From positions 1 through 60,260 of the forward strand of contig JAQUAW010000002.1 of the NCBI GenBank assembly GCA_028687045.1: a DNA stretch of 60,260 nt. Reading direction: 5' to 3'. The position numbers and the translations under genes are program-made. Below the pieces are notes generated by a model, which made no database searches, was not told where the DNA came from, and was given only the letters and a program-made list of their open reading frames with translations. This DNA is from Patescibacteria group bacterium (GTDB lineage Bacteria > Patescibacteriota > Patescibacteriia > Magasanikbacterales > UBA922). Position 1 is the first letter of the stretch; every line of letters starts with the position of its first letter. Below are positions 2,065 to 53,360 of this stretch, piece by piece.

Positions 2065-3999
2065 ATGCTAAACGCTCAAGAACTTAGAAAAAAATATTTA
2101 GAATTTTTTGAAAGCAAAGGTCATACTGTGATCAGTTCAGCTTCTTTGATGCCTGAAAATGATCCAACCACACTTTTTACTGGCTCTGGTATGCAACCTA
2201 TGGTGCCATATTTGCTTGGTGAAAAACATCCTTTGGGAACTCGTATTTCTGATTCACAAAAATGTTTTCGTGCCGTTGACATGGATGAAGTGGGGGATAA
2301 TCGTCACACTACATTTTTTGAAATGCTTGGTAATTGGTCTTTGGGTGATTATTTCAAAGACGAACAAATTGAATGGATGTTTGAATTTCTTTCAAAAGAA
2401 ATAAAATTGGACATGAATCGTGTTTTTGTTACATGTTTTCGTGGTGATGAAAATAATGGAATTCCCAAAGATACAGAAGCTGCTCAAAAATGGCAAACAC
2501 TTTTTAGATCTACTGGTATTGAAGCAGAAATCGCTGACATGCCAGAAGAAAAAGGTTTACAGAATGCTAGAATATTTTATTACAATGCCAAGAAAAATTG
2601 GTGGAGTCGTGCAGGTATTCCTGAAAAAATGCCAGATGGTGAACCTGGTGGACCAGATAGTGAAATGTTTTGGGATTTTGGTGAACATTTGAATTTACAT
2701 GAAAAATCAAAGTGGAAAGACGAACCTTGTCATGTTAATTGTGATTGTGGACGTTTTATGGAGATTGGTAACAACGTTTTCATGGAGTATATAAAAGTTG
2801 GTGACAAATTTGAAAAGTTGAAACAACAAAATGTAGATTTTGGTGGAGGTCTAGAACGTATGGCTGCAGCTTTGAATGATAATCAGGATATGTTTACTAT
2901 AGACTTATTTACCGGTGTCAGAAAAAAAATAGAAGAAGTATCTGGAAAAAAATACGGTGAGGATGAAAAAGAAACTTATGCATTTAGAGTGATTATGGAT
3001 CATTTACGTGCTGCTACTTTTTTGATTGATGATGGTGCTATACCTTCAAACAAAGATCAAGGATATTTTACACGTCGACTTATTCGTCGTGCGGTTCGTT
3101 ATGCCAATGATTTGGGCGTTACCGATATTTTTACACCAGAAGTTGCTGGTATTTATATAGAAGAATATAGTGAGCATTACCCATCACTTCAAAAAAATAA
3201 AGAATTAATTTTGAATGAGTTAAGGAAAGAAGAAACTAAATTTCGAGAAACTCTTGAACAAGGTATCAAAGAATTTGAAAAATTAACCAAAGGTTTTCAA
3301 ATGGCTTTAGAAAAAACTGGCCGTGCTATTACTGAAATAAGTGGTAAACAAGCTTTCAAACTTTATGATACTTTTGGTTTTCCAATTGAGATGACAGAAG
3401 AGCTTGCTAGTGAAAATAATCTGACAATTGACAAAGCTGGTTTTGATGAAGCTTTCTTGGCTCATCAAGAACTTTCTCGTCAAGGTGCTGAACAAAAATT
3501 CAAAGGTGGTATGGCTGATCATGGTGAAATGAGTGTGAAGTATCATACTGCTACTCATCTTCTTCATGCTGCTTTGCGCCAAGTCTTGGGGAATCATGTT
3601 GAACAAAAGGGAAGTAATATCACAGCTGAAAGAATGCGTTTTGATTTTTCTTACAATGATAAAATGACTCCGGAACAAATAAAAGAAGTAGAAGATTTGG
3701 TCAATTCTGCTATAAAAAATGATTATCCAGTAACTTTTTCTGAAATGAAAGTAGAGGAAGCTCGTACCAAAAATGCGATTGGTCTTTTTGGTGACAAATA
3801 TGGCGAAATGGTAAAAGTCTATACTGTCGGGGATCCAAACGAGATCTCAGCCAAAGCTAGTGAGAATAGTCTGACTTTTAGTCGCGAAATTTGTGGTGGT
3901 CCTCATGTGGAACATACTGGTGTGATGGGGAATTTCAAAATTGTCAAAGAAGAATCGAGTAGTGCGGGTATTCGTCGTATTAAAGCAATTTTAGAATAA
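2065..3999 (+). CDS. alaS: alanine--tRNA ligase (short form, no C-Ala domain)
   Basis: The N-terminus MLNAQELRKKYLEFFESKGH is typical of AlaRS. Editing-domain motifs HTATHLLH and CGGPHV are present. Start moved from track 2002 to ATG 2065 because 2002-2064 is a hairpin element. Confidence 0.95.
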   Translation: MLNAQELRKKYLEFFESKGHTVISSASLMPENDPTTLFTGSGMQPMVPYLLGEKHPLGTRISDSQKCFRAVDMDEVGDNRHTTFFEMLGNWSLGDYFKDEQIEWMFEFLSKEIKLDMNRVFVTCFRGDENNGIPKDTEAAQKWQTLFRSTGIEAEIADMPEEKGLQNARIFYYNAKKNWWSRAGIPEKMPDGEPGGPDSEMFWDFGEHLNLHEKSKWKDEPCHVNCDCGRFMEIGNNVFMEYIKVGDKFEKLKQQNVDFGGGLERMAAALNDNQDMFTIDLFTGVRKKIEEVSGKKYGEDEKETYAFRVIMDHLRAATFLIDDGAIPSNKDQGYFTRRLIRRAVRYANDLGVTDIFTPEVAGIYIEEYSEHYPSLQKNKELILNELRKEETKFRETLEQGIKEFEKLTKGFQMALEKTGRAITEISGKQAFKLYDTFGFPIEMTEELASENNLTIDKAGFDEAFLAHQELSRQGAEQKFKGGMADHGEMSVKYHTATHLLHAALRQVLGNHVEQKGSNITAERMRFDFSYNDKMTPEQIKEVEDLVNSAIKNDYPVTFSEMKVEEARTKNAIGLFGDKYGEMVKVYTVGDPNEISAKASENSLTFSREICGGPHVEHTGVMGNFKIVKEESSSAGIRRIKAILE

Positions 4000-4113
4000 T
4001 AAAAAGTTACAAGAAACAAGATACAAACAAATTATAAATTCTAAATTATAAAAAGTTTGTTATTTGTTTTTTGAGATTTGTTTGTTACTTGTAACTTGTA
4101 TCTTAATATACAA

Positions 4114-14198: not shown

Positions 14199-14281
14199 GC
14201 GAATATCGTATAATGGTATTACGTTGATTATAAAGTACTACTTTGCAATCAAAAATGGGAGTTCGAATCTTCCTATTCGCA
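14199..14281 (+). tRNA. tRNA-like gene with canonical acceptor/D/T arms but a 29-nt anticodon arm
   Basis: 7-bp acceptor GCGAATA/TATTCGC with A73; U8, A14, G18G19. T arm is GGGAG-TTCGAAT-CTTCC. The anticodon region is ttgattataaa-GTACTAC-tttgcaatcaa (11-bp helix, 7-nt loop). Confidence 0.55.
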
Positions 14282-16305: not shown

Positions 16306-16656
16306 CATAAAAACATTAAAGCATTAAAACATAAAAACACCCCGCTTTTCGTGAAAGACAGGGTGTTTTTTAAATTTGTTTTAAAACTGGGAGACTGCTG
16401 TATAAAAATGTGGCGGATAATTCCCCCTCCTATTAGGAGGGGTTAGGGGAGGTTTAGAGTATAACAAAACGTTTATCTCAAAGATGGACCCCCTCTAACT
16501 CCCCCTGCTAGGGGGAGGATCAATCTTTATTTTGTTATATTTTTTTATAAACAAAACACAAAGTTTCACACTTTTATGCAATAGTCCCTTTGTTTTCATG
16601 TTCTTGTGTTTTCATGTTTTAATGCTTTAATGTTTTTATGTTCTAGTGTTTTAATG
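16306..16656. repeat. CATTAAA-word inverted arms bracketing the whole ftsX/recQ convergent spacer
   Basis: The left arm cataaaaacattaaagcattaaaacataaaaacac (16306-16340) is mirrored by gttttcatgttttaatgctttaatgtttttatg... (16591-16656). The terminator hairpin ACACCC...GGGTGT at about 16335-16371 lies just inside. Confidence 0.8.
16419..16520. mobile_element. ~100-bp GC-rich palindromic doublet (MITE/REPIN-like), copy 1, inverted relative to copies 2 and 3
   Basis: ttccccctcctattaggaggggttagggga...ccccctctaactccccctgctagggggagg; its reverse complement aligns along the full length with 32487-32587. Confidence 0.85.
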
Positions 16657-32473: not shown

Positions 32474-32486
32474 ATATTTCTTTTTA

Positions 32487-32587
32487 TTCTCCCCCTACTA
32501 GGGGGAGTTAGAGGGGGTCCATCTTTGAGCAAAACGTTTTATCTTGCTCCAGACCCCACCTAGCCTCCCCTAATAGGGGAGGAAATC
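32487..32587. mobile_element. ~100-bp GC-rich palindromic doublet, copy 2
   Basis: ttctccccctactagggggagttagagggggtcc...gaccccacctagcctcccctaataggggaggaaatc. Confidence 0.85.
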
Positions 32588-32602
32588 TCTAAATAATTTA
32601 AT

Positions 32603-35337: not shown

Positions 35338-35348
35338 TCCTGACTTGG

Positions 35349-35450
35349 TTCTCCCCCTAGTAGGGGGAGTTAGAGGGGGTCTATCTTTGAGCTAAACGTT
35401 TTATCTTGCTAAAGACCCCTCCTAGCCTCCCCTAATAAGGGAGGAAATCG
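35349..35450. mobile_element. ~100-bp GC-rich palindromic doublet, copy 3
   Basis: ggttctccccctagtagggggagttagagggggtct...gacccctcctagcctcccctaataagggaggaaatc; same orientation as copy 2. Confidence 0.85.
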
Positions 35451-35483
35451 TTAAGTAAATTTAAAATTCTTTAACAAAGCTTT

Positions 35484-50322: not shown

Positions 50323-51726
50323 TTAGATTTTATCCACTTTTTGTCCCTCAGCAGTATCCTCAAGTGTATAACCTAAGGCTTTTATAACATCACGAAGTCT
50401 GTCACTTTCTGACCAATTTTTGTTTTCACGAGCTTGTTGACGTTCATTTAGAAGTTTTTGAATATCATCTGAAACTTCAACTTTTTTTTCTTCAACTTTA
50501 TCTAAGTCTAATCCTAATACTTTGTCAAATTGCAAAATAGTTTCATAATCAATTTCTTCGTTTTTCAAAGTATCAAATATCAAGGCTACAGCACCTGGCG
50601 TATCCAAATCATTGTTTATTTTTTCTAAGAATTTTTCTTGTAATTTTGTAGTATCAATTTTTTTGCTTTCATTTTTCAATTTCAAAATTTTGCTTTTCAA
50701 ATTTTCTAAACCGTTCTGAGCTGCTTCAAGAGCTTCAAAAGAAAAGCCTAGTTGCTTGCGATAGTTAGTTTGAAGTAAGAAAAAACGATAGGCGAGTGGA
50801 TCAATGCCTTTTGCTATAAGAGTATCTAATGTCACAAAATTATCTCCAGATTTTGACATTTTTTCATTATTTTTGAGTACAATGAATTCATTGTGCATCC
50901 AATAATTGACCCAAGGATGTTCACCAAAAGCAGCTTCTGATTGGGCAATTTCATTGGTGTGATGTACTGGTATATGATCTATTCCACCACAGTGAATATC
51001 AAAATGTTGACCTAAATATTTGCTACTCATAGCACTACATTCTATATGCCAGCCTGGAAAACCCATTCTACCAAAAGCTTCCCATTCCATTTGTCTTTTT
51101 TGTTGAGGTTGAAAACCCTCCGGGTGTCCTTCACTACGTTCACTCCATTTCCACAAAGCAAAATCATGAGGATTTTTCTTTTCACCAATTTCTACTCTTG
51201 AACCAGCTTCTAATTCTTGATTTTGTAAATTTGCCATTTCACCATAAGTAGGGAATTTTGTAGTATCAAAATAAATACCATCACTTGTTTCGTAAGTAAA
51301 GCCTTTGTCTATCAGAGTTTGTACTAGTTCAATTTGTTCGGGAATATTGTCTGTTGCTTTGCACCAAGTGGTAGGGGATTCAATATTTAGTTTTTTTAGA
51401 TCATTTTGAAAAGCTTGTGTATAGAATTCAGCAATTTCCCAAGCAGTCTTGCCTTCGCGTTTTGATCCTTTTTCCATTTTGTCTTCGCCATTATCTCCAT
51501 CATCTGTCAGATGTCCGACATCAGTAATATTCATGACATGATTTACTTCATAATCATTGTATTGCAAAACACGTTTCAAAATATCTTCAAAAATATAACT
51601 ACGCAAATTACCAATATGAGCATAATGATAAACAGTTGGACCGCAAGTATAGAGACCAACTTTTTTGTCAGTAATAGGTTTGAATTCTTCGTTTTTGTGA
51701 GTGAGTGTGTTGTAGAGGTGTAACAT
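50323..51726 (-). CDS. cysS: cysteine--tRNA ligase
   Basis: HIGN (YAHIGNLRSY) and KMSKS motifs; WHIECS zinc-site region. Confidence 0.95.
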   Translation of the reverse strand: MLHLYNTLTHKNEEFKPITDKKVGLYTCGPTVYHYAHIGNLRSYIFEDILKRVLQYNDYEVNHVMNITDVGHLTDDGDNGEDKMEKGSKREGKTAWEIAEFYTQAFQNDLKKLNIESPTTWCKATDNIPEQIELVQTLIDKGFTYETSDGIYFDTTKFPTYGEMANLQNQELEAGSRVEIGEKKNPHDFALWKWSERSEGHPEGFQPQQKRQMEWEAFGRMGFPGWHIECSAMSSKYLGQHFDIHCGGIDHIPVHHTNEIAQSEAAFGEHPWVNYWMHNEFIVLKNNEKMSKSGDNFVTLDTLIAKGIDPLAYRFFLLQTNYRKQLGFSFEALEAAQNGLENLKSKILKLKNESKKIDTTKLQEKFLEKINNDLDTPGAVALIFDTLKNEEIDYETILQFDKVLGLDLDKVEEKKVEVSDDIQKLLNERQQARENKNWSESDRLRDVIKALGYTLEDTAEGQKVDKI

Positions 51727-51815
51727 AGGGCTTACGAGGCTTACGAGGCTTACAAGGCTCTAAACGAGCTCGGATGAGCTTACAAGGCTTTGGCAGTCTC
51801 TTTTTTGATTGTTTA

Positions 51816-51844
51816 ATTATAATCTAGGATTAGTTTTTTGTAAA
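51816..51844 (-). promoter_or_regulatory. sigma70-type promoter of cysS
   Basis: On the minus strand: TTTACA (51844-39), 17-nt spacer, TATAAT (51821-16). Confidence 0.6.
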
Positions 51845-51845
51845 T

Positions 51846-52001
51846 AAAAAAAACCTATTGTAGGTATTTTTGTATGAGAGAGATTGTGAGCGCGTGTGGT
51901 CGAGTCTCAAGACCACACGCGTTGGTGTGTTAGAATGAGCCGCCAGTAAAAGGGACCGGGGAGGTGGTCAACCTAATACTGGCGGCTCAGTAAGTACACA
52001 G
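51846..52001 (-). ncRNA. candidate small RNA A (paralogue of RNA B)
   Basis: Minus strand: TTGACA (52037-32), 17-nt spacer, TTTATT. There is a 12-bp perfect hairpin (51937-48/51977-88) and a conserved 11-bp hairpin with UUGAGACUC loop (51891-51921). A CACAAUCUCUC box follows, then terminator ACCUA-caa-UAGGU plus U8 (51846-65). Confidence 0.6.
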
Positions 52002-52056
52002 CACAAATAATAAATCACATTTTGGCTTATTTGTCAAGTATTTGGCTGTATATAAC

Positions 52057-52224
52057 AAAAAAATCTCTTTTTTGAGAGATTGTGGGTGCGTTTGGTCGAG
52101 TCTCAGTTTTCCCGAAGGAAAAGAGTCTCAAGACCAAACGCTTTTGTGTAAGTAAAGACTAACGATTTTTTTCAACAGCCTACCCTTCTCACGAGGCGGA
52201 GTCGATAGAAAAGGTTAGTCTTAT
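52057..52224 (-). ncRNA. candidate small RNA B (paralogue of RNA A)
   Basis: Minus strand: TTGACA (52259-54), 17-nt spacer, TTCATT. There is a 9-bp hairpin (52155-63/52214-22). The conserved hairpin GCGUUUGGUC/GACCAAACGC carries an inserted cUUCGg-capped stem. A CACAAUCUCUC box follows, then terminator AUCUCU/AGAGAU plus U7. Confidence 0.6.
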
Positions 52225-52516
52225 GTATTAAATGAACCATATATTAGTTGTGTTGTCAATTTTTTATTGACTTTTTTTTATAATTTGATATACCTTATAT
52301 TGTCTCAGACATTCTTGGTGTTTTTCACATCTCCCAATGTGAAAACTCTAGATGTTTTTTCATGGACTTGAAAAAGTTAATGAAAAGTCACTATGTGTGG
52401 GGGTGATTGAGACGTCTTATCTTGAGGGGTGCTGTCAATGACACACCCCTGGCTTCCTTATATTTGATTCTATTATGTTTTTGAGTTATAATTGAATAAA
52501 TAATAATCAAAAAAAT

Positions 52517-52869: not shown

Positions 52870-53360
52870 GCAACTCACCCCTAACCCCTCTCTTGTAAAG
52901 AGAGGGGAAATTGTGTAAAAAATTTTTGTTATGGATTCGCAATTACAAGAAATAAAAAAGAGATGTAGGATATTGCGAATTAATCAGACTAGGTGTGAAA
53001 GTATATTGTGGAATTGTTTGCGTAATCGAAGATTTTATAATTTGAAGTTTTATCGTCAGTATCCTATAAAATTTATTTTTGATAAGAAAATAAATTATTT
53101 TATTGCAGATTTCTATTGTCACGAGAGAAAATTGATTATAGAAGTTGATGGTAAGGTTCATGAATTTCAAAAAGACTATGACAATATGAGGGAGAATGTT
53201 TTGAAAGAGATGGGGATCAAAATTATAAGATTTACTAATGAAGAAATAGAAGAAAATATAAATAAGGTTTTATTACTTTTGAAAAATATAATTTAAATAA
53301 AAAAACTTCACTATTAGTTTCCCCTCCCTTTTTAAGGGAGGGGCTAGGGGAGAGTTTAGC
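52870..53360 (+). mobile_element. DUF559 gene unit bracketed by ~41-nt inverted hairpin modules
   Basis: Left module is at 52870-52910. The reverse complement of the right module (53318-53360) aligns with it: gcaactcacccctaacccctctcttgtaaagagaggggaaa versus gctaaactctcccctagcccctcccttaaaaagggaggggaaa. Confidence 0.75.
52931..53296 (+). CDS. DUF559 (Vsr-like endonuclease fold) domain protein
   Basis: R.LR.NQT..E..LW..LRNRRF...KF.RQ.PI..fIaDFYC...KLIIEVDG..H....yD..R...L...GI.IIRF.N.EI. Confidence 0.85.
   Translation: MDSQLQEIKKRCRILRINQTRCESILWNCLRNRRFYNLKFYRQYPIKFIFDKKINYFIADFYCHERKLIIEVDGKVHEFQKDYDNMRENVLKEMGIKIIRFTNEEIEENINKVLLLLKNII

Follow-up and report, generated by a model that had tools for sequence, protein, structure and literature searches.

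The window analysed here, a stretch of 60,260 nt from a Candidatus Magasanikbacteria genome of the candidate phyla radiation (CPR, or Patescibacteria; contig JAQUAW010000002.1), is low in GC (~30%). A spacer of 790 nt separates cysS, which encodes cysteine–tRNA ligase (CysRS), from the divergent gene next to it, and neither strand of that spacer has an open reading frame of at least 40 amino acids. An initial annotation, made from the window sequence, had proposed two tandem paralogous genes for structured small RNAs (sRNAs) upstream of cysS. Comparison with related genomes supports two such genes, read from the minus strand and each with its own promoter and terminator: 13 units of the same layout and strand, all in the spacer between the holin-like divergent gene and cysS, were found in nine genomes (window included) in one to three tandem copies, their helices covary, their promoters match in architecture three gene promoters elsewhere in the window and no known RNA family accounts for them. 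We propose below what these predicted RNAs may do and weigh that proposal against four other readings.

With their promoters the two units occupy 51846-52259 of the minus strand (Table 1), and the parts listed in the initial annotation were all present where it had placed them, including the perfect bases of both 5' hairpins. Both follow one layout, in which the promoter, TTGACA-N14-TGn-(-10), precedes the long hairpin P1 at the 5' end, then the hairpin P2, which carries UGAGACUC, then a CACAAUCUCUC box and lastly a terminator made of a hairpin and U7-8. GC content over the units is 0.43-0.49 against ~0.30 in the surroundings. Repeat analysis returned blocks of 32 nt and 27 nt common to the two units at 89-91% identity, and the arms of P2 as perfect inverted repeats; the G-to-U change on one P2 arm that is compensated by C-to-A on the other, described earlier, is therefore real. 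No further copy of GGTCTTGAGACTC or of the box was present in the 60-kb window, and GAGACTC did not occur in it outside the units. Fold z-scores were -9.4 for unit A and -5.6 for unit B, none of 200 dinucleotide shuffles folding as well in either case, and a covariance model of the B-type P2, R1, scored unit A at 47 bits.

Table 1. Positions of the predicted sRNA units and of cysS-related features in the window.
Feature	Position	Strand	Description	Basis
Promoter B	52231..52259	minus	TTGACA 52259-52254, 14 nt, TGg, TTCATT 52236-52231 (TGgTTCATT 52239-52231)	sequence; kept in L001, L009
Unit B RNA (predicted 5' end)	52057..52224	minus	~168 nt	fold z, orthologues
Unit B P1	52221-52156	minus	basal stem AGACUAACC/CGUUAGUCU, 9 bp	
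Unit B linker	52155-52142	minus		
Unit B P2	52088..52141	minus	rod, ~25 bp	
Unit B box	52084-52074	minus	doubles as 5' arm of terminator	
Unit B terminator	52081-52057	minus	AAUCUCUC-A6-GAGAUU, then U7 ending at 52057	
Promoter A	52009..52037	minus	TTGACA 52037-52032, 14 nt, TGa, TTTATT 52014-52009 (TGaTTTATT 52017-52009)	sequence
Unit A RNA (predicted 5' end)	51846..52003	minus	~157 nt	fold z, R1 score, covariation
Unit A P1	51989-51936	minus	perfect base of 12-13 bp; apex CCACCUCCCC at 51967-51958	
Unit A linker	51935-51922	minus		
Unit A P2	51921-51891	minus	11 bp, 9-nt loop UUGAGACUC	
Unit A box	51888-51878	minus		
Unit A terminator	51871-51846	minus	A-tract, CCUAcaaUAGG, U8 ending at 51846	
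cysS promoter	51816..51844	minus	TTTACA-17-TATAAT; abuts unit A U-run	consensus scan, 11/12
cysS leader	51727..51809	minus	~83 nt; AAGCCUY repeats; 9-nt tandem GCCUCGUAA at 51758-51728	
cysS start	51726	minus	ATG	
cysS	50323..51726	minus	cysteine–tRNA ligase, 467 aa	best named protein matches are Candidatus Magasanikbacteria
Divergent gene	starts 52517		holin-like membrane protein, PF04020	

The relatives were taken from cysS loci of one genome per species together with contigs coding for close CysRS relatives, and are referred to by L-numbers. Eight of them carry units, with CysRS proteins 72-94% identical to that of the window: L001 (94%) has three complete units, of B type, a third type 'M' and A type; L009 (92%) has a B and an A unit; and L081/L082 (85%), L002 (79%), L003 (79%), L004 (75%), L083 (72%) and L099 (72%) have one unit each, that of L083 consisting of P1 without P2. 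Model R1 scored the B orthologues of L001, L009, L003, L004, L081 and L099 at 68-95 bits and found nothing credible in the remaining 70-odd cysS loci, and visual inspection of L005-L017, L100 and L101 revealed no further homologues. Units are lacking in the relatives whose CysRS is at most 68% identical. A metagenome-wide pattern scan for the B-type P2 gave 15 matches, five of them true, all in the cysS spacer of known member genomes, and ten of them chance matches inside coding DNA. A phage origin was dropped, two scans of viral contigs having returned chance matches only. On these comparisons the family appears to be real but narrow, and so far located only next to cysS.

No known family covers the units. 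The Rfam 15 matches that reached gathering scores in the window were all tRNAs; relaxing the threshold for the spacer (E up to 10) added sub-threshold chance matches to viral pseudoknots and snoRNAs, and a scan of seven related loci (E up to 0.5) gave no family. The lack of fit to T-box, signal recognition particle (SRP) RNA, 6S RNA, transfer-messenger RNA (tmRNA) and RNase P RNA that had been noted earlier thus held against both Rfam and ARAGORN, the latter finding no tmRNA. A K-turn was rejected, the pattern of a bulge followed by GA/AG being absent from the units, and so was a hammerhead-like GAUGAG, which occurs in some copies only and has no Rfam match. Literature searches yielded no report of an RNA of this kind in Magasanikbacteria or CPR bacteria. 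What the units do possess are the generic features of a bacterial sRNA gene, namely a conserved sigma-70-type promoter of their own, a terminator of their own and compensatory structure, and they appear to constitute an undescribed clade-specific family.

Structural conservation was assessed on an alignment of five full units, orthologues and paralogues mixed, with the RNAalifold structure derived from that same alignment. P1, P2 and the terminator were predicted, 16 of the 41 pairs were changed on both sides and 86% of the cells were paired; none of 500 shuffles reached any of the four measures, and sliding the partners by 1-3 columns left 35-50% paired. The outer stem of P2 takes at least six different sequences (GCGUGUGGUC, GCGUUUGGUC, ACGUUUGGUC, CACCUGGG, GGUGACCGAAU and GGGGUAGGCUUG), the exact complement being kept each time. 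Conservation and covariation in relatives, whose absence would by the initial annotation have refuted its proposal, therefore came out in its favour.

In the B-type P2, an outer stem of 10-12 bp is followed by a 2-nt bulge, by a 7-bp GAGACUC/GAGACUC helix whose centre is an A.A mismatch, by a second 2-nt bulge in the opposite strand and by an inner stem of 6 bp that carries a small loop; in unit B of the window the outer stem has 10 bp, the bulges are UU and CU and the loop is UUCG. The initial annotation had seen here a loop duplicated around an inserted stem, which did not stand: the two copies of UGAGACUC pair with each other, because L004 (AAGACUC/GAGACUU) and L002 (GAGCUC/GAGCUC) have matched changes that preserve the middle helix. 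The same changes dispose of interdigitated T-loops, as in T-box stem I and RNase P, to which the twofold UGAGA had pointed. Across seven genomes, whose CysRS proteins are 72-94% identical, 38 columns of this hairpin are invariant, and conservation extends far beyond that of the neighbouring intergenic DNA. Since both arms keep their sequence even where CysRS has fallen to 72-79% identity, this conservation points to sequence-specific recognition of P2 and not to a mere stability element. P2 is flanked by the CUYACAC linker and the CACAAUCUCUC box, both unpaired and free of G, and pairing between the 5' leader and the CACAC of the linker lengthens the base of P1.

The evidence for transcription comes from the conserved signals around the units. 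TTGACA-N14-TGn and a -10 box precede each unit of the window, L001, L009, L002, L081, L083 and L099, with close variants in L003 and L004, and the spacer of promoter A (AAATWAGCCAAAATATG) is kept in L001, L009 and L081. The TTGACA-17-TTYATT promoters of the initial annotation correspond to this arrangement. It recurs identically at protein-gene promoters of the window (22135, 23837 and 37776), and the TTGACA-N14-TGn pattern has only seven sites in the 60 kb. Twelve of the 13 units end in a hairpin and U6-8, with stem sequences that vary between units, so that every unit except the one of L004, which is fused to cysS, has its own -35, TGn and -10 and its own terminator, also between tandem copies. 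With -10 boxes this weak and terminator stems this rich in AT, a simple consensus scan flagged neither the promoters nor the terminators of the two window units; the support for both comes, on sequence grounds, from their conservation, and transcription of the units is a prediction from it. As to strand, the earlier call drew on the terminators and on the UUCG tetraloop. The U-runs, together with the promoters, bear it out, but the tetraloop is unconserved, relatives carrying UUUUG, UUUG or UUUUUG, which leaves promoters and U-runs as the sole basis of the call. Neither folding energy nor the number of G-U pairs told the strands apart.

The relatives also suggest how the two units arose. A C-rich apex of P1 marks the A-type and single-copy units: CCUCCCC in unit A of the window, unit A of L001, L081 and L003, CCUCCCU in unit A of L009, CUCCUUCCC in L004 and UUCCCCC in L083. 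The P1 of unit A is common to the A units of L001 and L009 and to L081, whereas UGAGACUC occurs twice in the B-type RNAs and twice also in unit A of L001. In the single-copy L081 and L003 an A-type P1 and a B-type P2 stand on one RNA (the P1 of L081 reading GAGCCGCC...GGCGGCUC). By comparison of these units, a single-copy gene with both modules appears to be the ancestral state, and the modules were split between copies after tandem duplication. In the window, L001 and L009, copy A has kept P1 and a P2 cut to an 11-bp stem with the 9-nt UUGAGACUC loop, and copy B has kept the full P2 with a different P1, without the C-rich apex; L083 has lost P2 outright. In contigs of related strains from landfill and groundwater (X3 and X4) the unit-A slot (~51871-52019) is taken by 177 or 412 different letters, and unit B and a neighbouring element described below, element U, are still alignable. 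As A is replaced while B is kept, the A slot is the fast-changing part, and the strain differences fit turnover of A-side units in copy number and sequence, as seen between L001 and L009.

The relation to cysS was judged mainly from the position of the cysS promoter. In eight of the nine genomes this promoter lies past the last terminator (its sequence is conserved in L001, L002, L003, L009, L083 and L099), and in the window it begins one base past the U-run of unit A, which agrees with the abutment described earlier. Since cysS keeps a conserved promoter of its own there, the RNAs are best taken as separate genes, and cysS does not depend on read-through in these eight genomes. The exception is L004, where the unit (3788-4003, on a contig shared with L092) has neither a terminator nor a separate cysS promoter after it, and the cysS ATG follows 25 nt past the box. 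This fusion is seen in a single assembly and may be an assembly error; taken as it stands, it indicates that the promoter of the RNA is able to serve an essential gene, and thus supports both promoter and strand whilst keeping a cis role possible. The cysS leader itself is GC-richer than other leaders of the genome and lacks a Shine-Dalgarno sequence. AAGCCUU is found in the cysS leaders of L001 (3940-4000), L002 (3930-4000), L003 (3965-4000), L081 (815-880) and L083 (2945-3000), not of L099, and the 9-nt GCCUCGUAA tandem is shared by the leaders of the window and L081. No pairing between the RNAs and the cysS leader was conserved between genomes.

We consider it somewhat better than an even chance (a probability of about 0.55) that the units specify independent trans-acting sRNAs, in which P2 would be the handle for a protein and contacts would be made through the unpaired C/A-rich segments, with some read-through into cysS. 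The two genes would yield stable structured RNAs of ~157 and ~168 nt, paralogues in a clade-specific family. The ancestral single RNA would have comprised four parts: a long P1 hairpin with a CCUCCCC apex; a P2 rod of ~25 bp with two opposed 2-nt bulges around the GAGACUC/GAGACUC helix; the G-free, CA/CU-rich unpaired CUYACAC linker with the CACAAUCUCUC box; and an intrinsic terminator. Tandem duplication in the lineage of the window then left A with P1 and a stripped-down P2, and B with the full P2 and no C-rich apex. P2 would be the sequence-specific recognition handle, its pseudo-twofold bulge-helix-bulge arrangement suggesting a dimeric protein partner, and the unpaired C-rich and CA-rich segments may contact RNA or protein. 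Any leakage at the last terminator, which abuts the cysS promoter, would also feed transcription into cysS. Both the action in trans and the partner of the RNAs are, on this proposal, what we infer from conserved sequence and structure.

Several observations weigh against this proposal or fit another equally well. Folding energy does not favour the sense strand, for its complement folds equally well. The alignments are small, at 5-12 sequences with paralogues included, and covariation among the B-type orthologues alone is not above chance, because their P2 sequences hardly vary. The family is known only beside cysS and always in the same direction (as in five of the five true metagenome matches), which fits a cis role too, and so does the fusion of the L004 unit to cysS as its leader. 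The stretch was found only in DNA metagenomes, from landfill and groundwater, and in no RNA-seq run. A duplex scan of seven RNA segments against the 52 gene starts of the window gave nothing above shuffled controls.

These 52 gene starts bear also on the C-rich apex. Almost none has a Shine-Dalgarno sequence. The DNA ahead of them is AT-rich, in many cases with a TATAAT placed 5-10 nt from the ATG, and this suggests mRNAs that are leaderless or have very short leaders. The CCUCCCC of unit A had been described as an anti-Shine-Dalgarno-like motif: the motif itself is conserved in relatives, but the anti-Shine-Dalgarno reading is doubtful since the genome hardly uses such sites. The G-rich complements of CCUCCCC in the window are mostly arms of intergenic palindromes.

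Of the other readings, the one that survives best, although we hold it to be unlikely, is that the units are cis-acting leaders or attenuators of cysS, comparable to a T-box, a riboswitch or UpsM, whose terminators would be overridden on a signal (a protein, a tRNA or a small molecule) sensed by P1 or P2, letting transcription from the strong RNA promoters run on into cysS, the short RNAs being terminated by-products. The units lie directly upstream of cysS and co-directional with it in all nine genomes, and the pattern scan placed the B-type P2 nowhere else; this position is, however, explained by synteny alone, as the arrangement of the holin-like gene and cysS is kept clade-wide. In L004 the unit is the sole visible leader and promoter of cysS, but a promoter of cysS's own follows the last terminator in the eight other genomes, and a full promoter and terminator on each tandem copy would be needless for a leader. 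Short, AT-rich terminator stems, missed by the simple scan, make read-through plausible, and the terminator of unit B has the conserved box as its 5' arm; yet no conserved alternative antiterminator pairing was found, the UUGAGA/UCUCAA pairing being lost in the B units of L001 and L009, whose box is CACAAUCACAC. A precedent for a terminated leader that acts also as an sRNA does exist in UpsM, which Rhodobacteraceae produce by termination inside the long 5' leader of their dcw cluster (PMC5089854). Like UpsM, the units here are clade-restricted structured RNAs whose Rho-independent terminator lies close before a conserved housekeeping gene, with read-through into it possible, and the L004 RNA would be a literal cysS leader; unlike UpsM, they come as tandem copies, cysS has its own promoter past the terminator in eight of nine genomes, and the family is known from sequence alone.

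T-box leaders (RF00230) resemble the units in that both are structured, have a terminator and lie immediately before the gene of an aminoacyl-tRNA synthetase. The RF00230 covariance model nevertheless gave no match in the spacer (E up to 10) or in the seven related loci (E up to 0.5). P1 has no internal loop bearing a conserved UGC or UGU, by sequence and by fold, and hence no Cys-codon specifier loop; there is no AAUUAGGGUGGNACC-like T-box sequence; and in place of a UGGN bulge, the UGGU of P2 is fully paired with ACCA. Placement within the 5' untranslated region is likewise lacking outside L004, a promoter standing between the last terminator and cysS, in addition to the one that precedes each copy.

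It is improbable, and in our estimate more so than a cis leader, that the units are abundant housekeeping or ribonucleoprotein RNAs, whether 6S-like and polymerase-binding or protein-sequestering with UGAGACUC as a repeated protein-binding motif. Such RNAs would account for the perfect -35 and extended -10, as at strong promoters, for the sequence conservation of both P2 helix arms, which is typical of protein-recognised RNA, and for the doubling of UGAGACUC in the B-type RNAs and unit A of L001, GAGACTC being confined to the units in the window. The folds, though, consist of two separate hairpins and a terminator with neither the closing stem nor the central bubble of 6S RNA, and they contain no array of GGA loops as in CsrB/RsmY-type sponges, the repeated motif being UGAGACUC, present once or twice. 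No Rfam match was obtained, L083 has no P2, and the restriction to a narrow clade, with absence at CysRS identities of 68% or less, would be odd for a housekeeping RNA.

More speculative again is a new kind of riboregulator tied to the aminoacyl-tRNA synthetase gene in bacteria without T-boxes, in which P2 would be bound by CysRS or by a factor of Cys-tRNA supply and the same RNA would act both in cis and, as a terminated sRNA, in trans, the copies having split the tasks; read-through into cysS would be conditional, and the L004 fusion would be its frozen form. We regard this reading as a whole as quite improbable. A mimic of the tRNA-Cys acceptor was also looked for: the tails that follow P2 are A-CCC-A, G-CCC-A, G-CCA-A and G-CUC-A, never U-CCA, and a likeness of the L081 P2 to the acceptor stem of E. 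coli tRNA-Cys was dropped for that reason.

Finally, that the units are no functional RNAs at all but DNA palindromes (operators or repeats of the repetitive extragenic palindromic (REP) or miniature inverted-repeat transposable element (MITE) type) or decaying duplicates that fold by chance is scarcely credible, for although the genome does have GC-rich palindromic intergenic repeats, among them a ~100-nt element in three copies, the antisense folds equally well and the content of the unit-A slot differs between strains, the stems change sequence and stay complementary, unlike protein-binding DNA palindromes, every unit is framed by a conserved promoter and U-run that specify the strand, the adjoining intergenic DNA is conserved far less than P2, and there is one locus per genome with no copies elsewhere in the window, at 80 other cysS loci or in viral contigs.

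If the units are trans-acting sRNA genes, as we prefer, their closest parallels in organisation are OmrA/OmrB of E. coli and PrrF1/PrrF2 of Pseudomonas aeruginosa, which are tandem paralogous sRNA genes. As in those pairs, two adjacent co-directional genes from a tandem duplication each have their own promoter and intrinsic terminator, and some blocks are conserved in both copies whilst the rest has diverged. Unlike them, the present units share no sequence or Rfam similarity with either pair, have their modules split, with P1 in A and P2 in B, and belong to a CPR host; they are set beside them as candidate sRNA genes. The sRNAs of the RsaE/RoxS type in Firmicutes have C-rich loops and usually target Shine-Dalgarno sequences. 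Here too a C-rich motif (CCUCCCC or CUCCCC) stands at the apex of a stable hairpin and is kept in relatives; it differs from RsaE/RoxS in being single on each RNA, in having no Rfam match and in belonging to a genome from which Shine-Dalgarno sequences are nearly absent.

The surroundings of the locus are otherwise ordinary, with genes for a VirD4-like ATPase, an acyltransferase, pyrH, a DUF559 protein and a primase. In a protein search the best named matches of the window CysRS were 79% identical, and unnamed metagenome proteins reached 92%. Between the RNA array and the holin-like gene lies a third conserved non-coding element, which we call element U, on the plus strand of the window (52267-52465) and in L001 (2995-3180), L009 (3220-3400), L003 (3535-3715), L004 (3505-3775), L083 (2490-2735) and L099 (1785-1995). 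The window, L001 and L009 have near-identical copies, and the others diverge. At the junction, -35 boxes (TTGTCAA..TTGACAA) stand back to back, and TTGACA-N14-TGn promoters on the opposite strand in L003, L083, L004 and L099 suggest a divergently transcribed RNA of ~170-250 nt whose end would be a GC hairpin (AGGGGUG..CACCCCU). Its fold z-score is -3.45, it has no Rfam match and its alignment is too poor to settle a structure. Upstream of it in L083 (2283-2402) is a long perfect hairpin with sub-threshold Rfam matches on both strands (AaHKsRNA41 at 37 bits, the cut-off being 97), in which a palindrome was probably matched by chance.

Elsewhere in the window, the three copies of the ~100-nt intergenic repeat (32480-32600 and 35344-35465 on the plus strand, 16415-16535 on the minus strand) fill whole gene spacers with a mean column identity of 82% and no Rfam match. 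Each copy is bounded by the hairpins CUCCCCCUAGUAGGGGGAG and CCUCCCCUAAUAGGGGAGG and has one more at its centre, the third copy carrying a compensatory variant, CCCCUCC..GGAGGGG, in the 3' hairpin. The repeat may be a REP/MITE-like element or a further RNA family. Hairpins that resemble these, CCCCUCCC/GGGAGGGG, are present at 52880-52910 and 53318-53345. At 14199-14281 (plus strand) Rfam called a tRNA at 49.7 bits and ARAGORN made no call; by eye the acceptor and T arms are normal and an anticodon loop of ~19 nt contains UUUGCA, so that this may be an unusual or interrupted tRNA.

CPR bacteria have small genomes with few classical regulators, and to our knowledge almost nothing is known of their regulatory RNAs. 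The locus offers a clean case, obtained by genome comparison, of a small-RNA gene family with its promoters, terminators and covarying helices, and it shows the form that strong promoters and terminators take in this lineage. Its history is also visible, in a tandem duplication, a partition of modules, a change of copy number between strains and one fusion to an essential neighbour. Were the tie to cysS not functional, the family would still be a useful seed for a new Rfam entry; were it functional, it would represent an RNA link to an aminoacyl-tRNA synthetase gene that is independent of the T-box.

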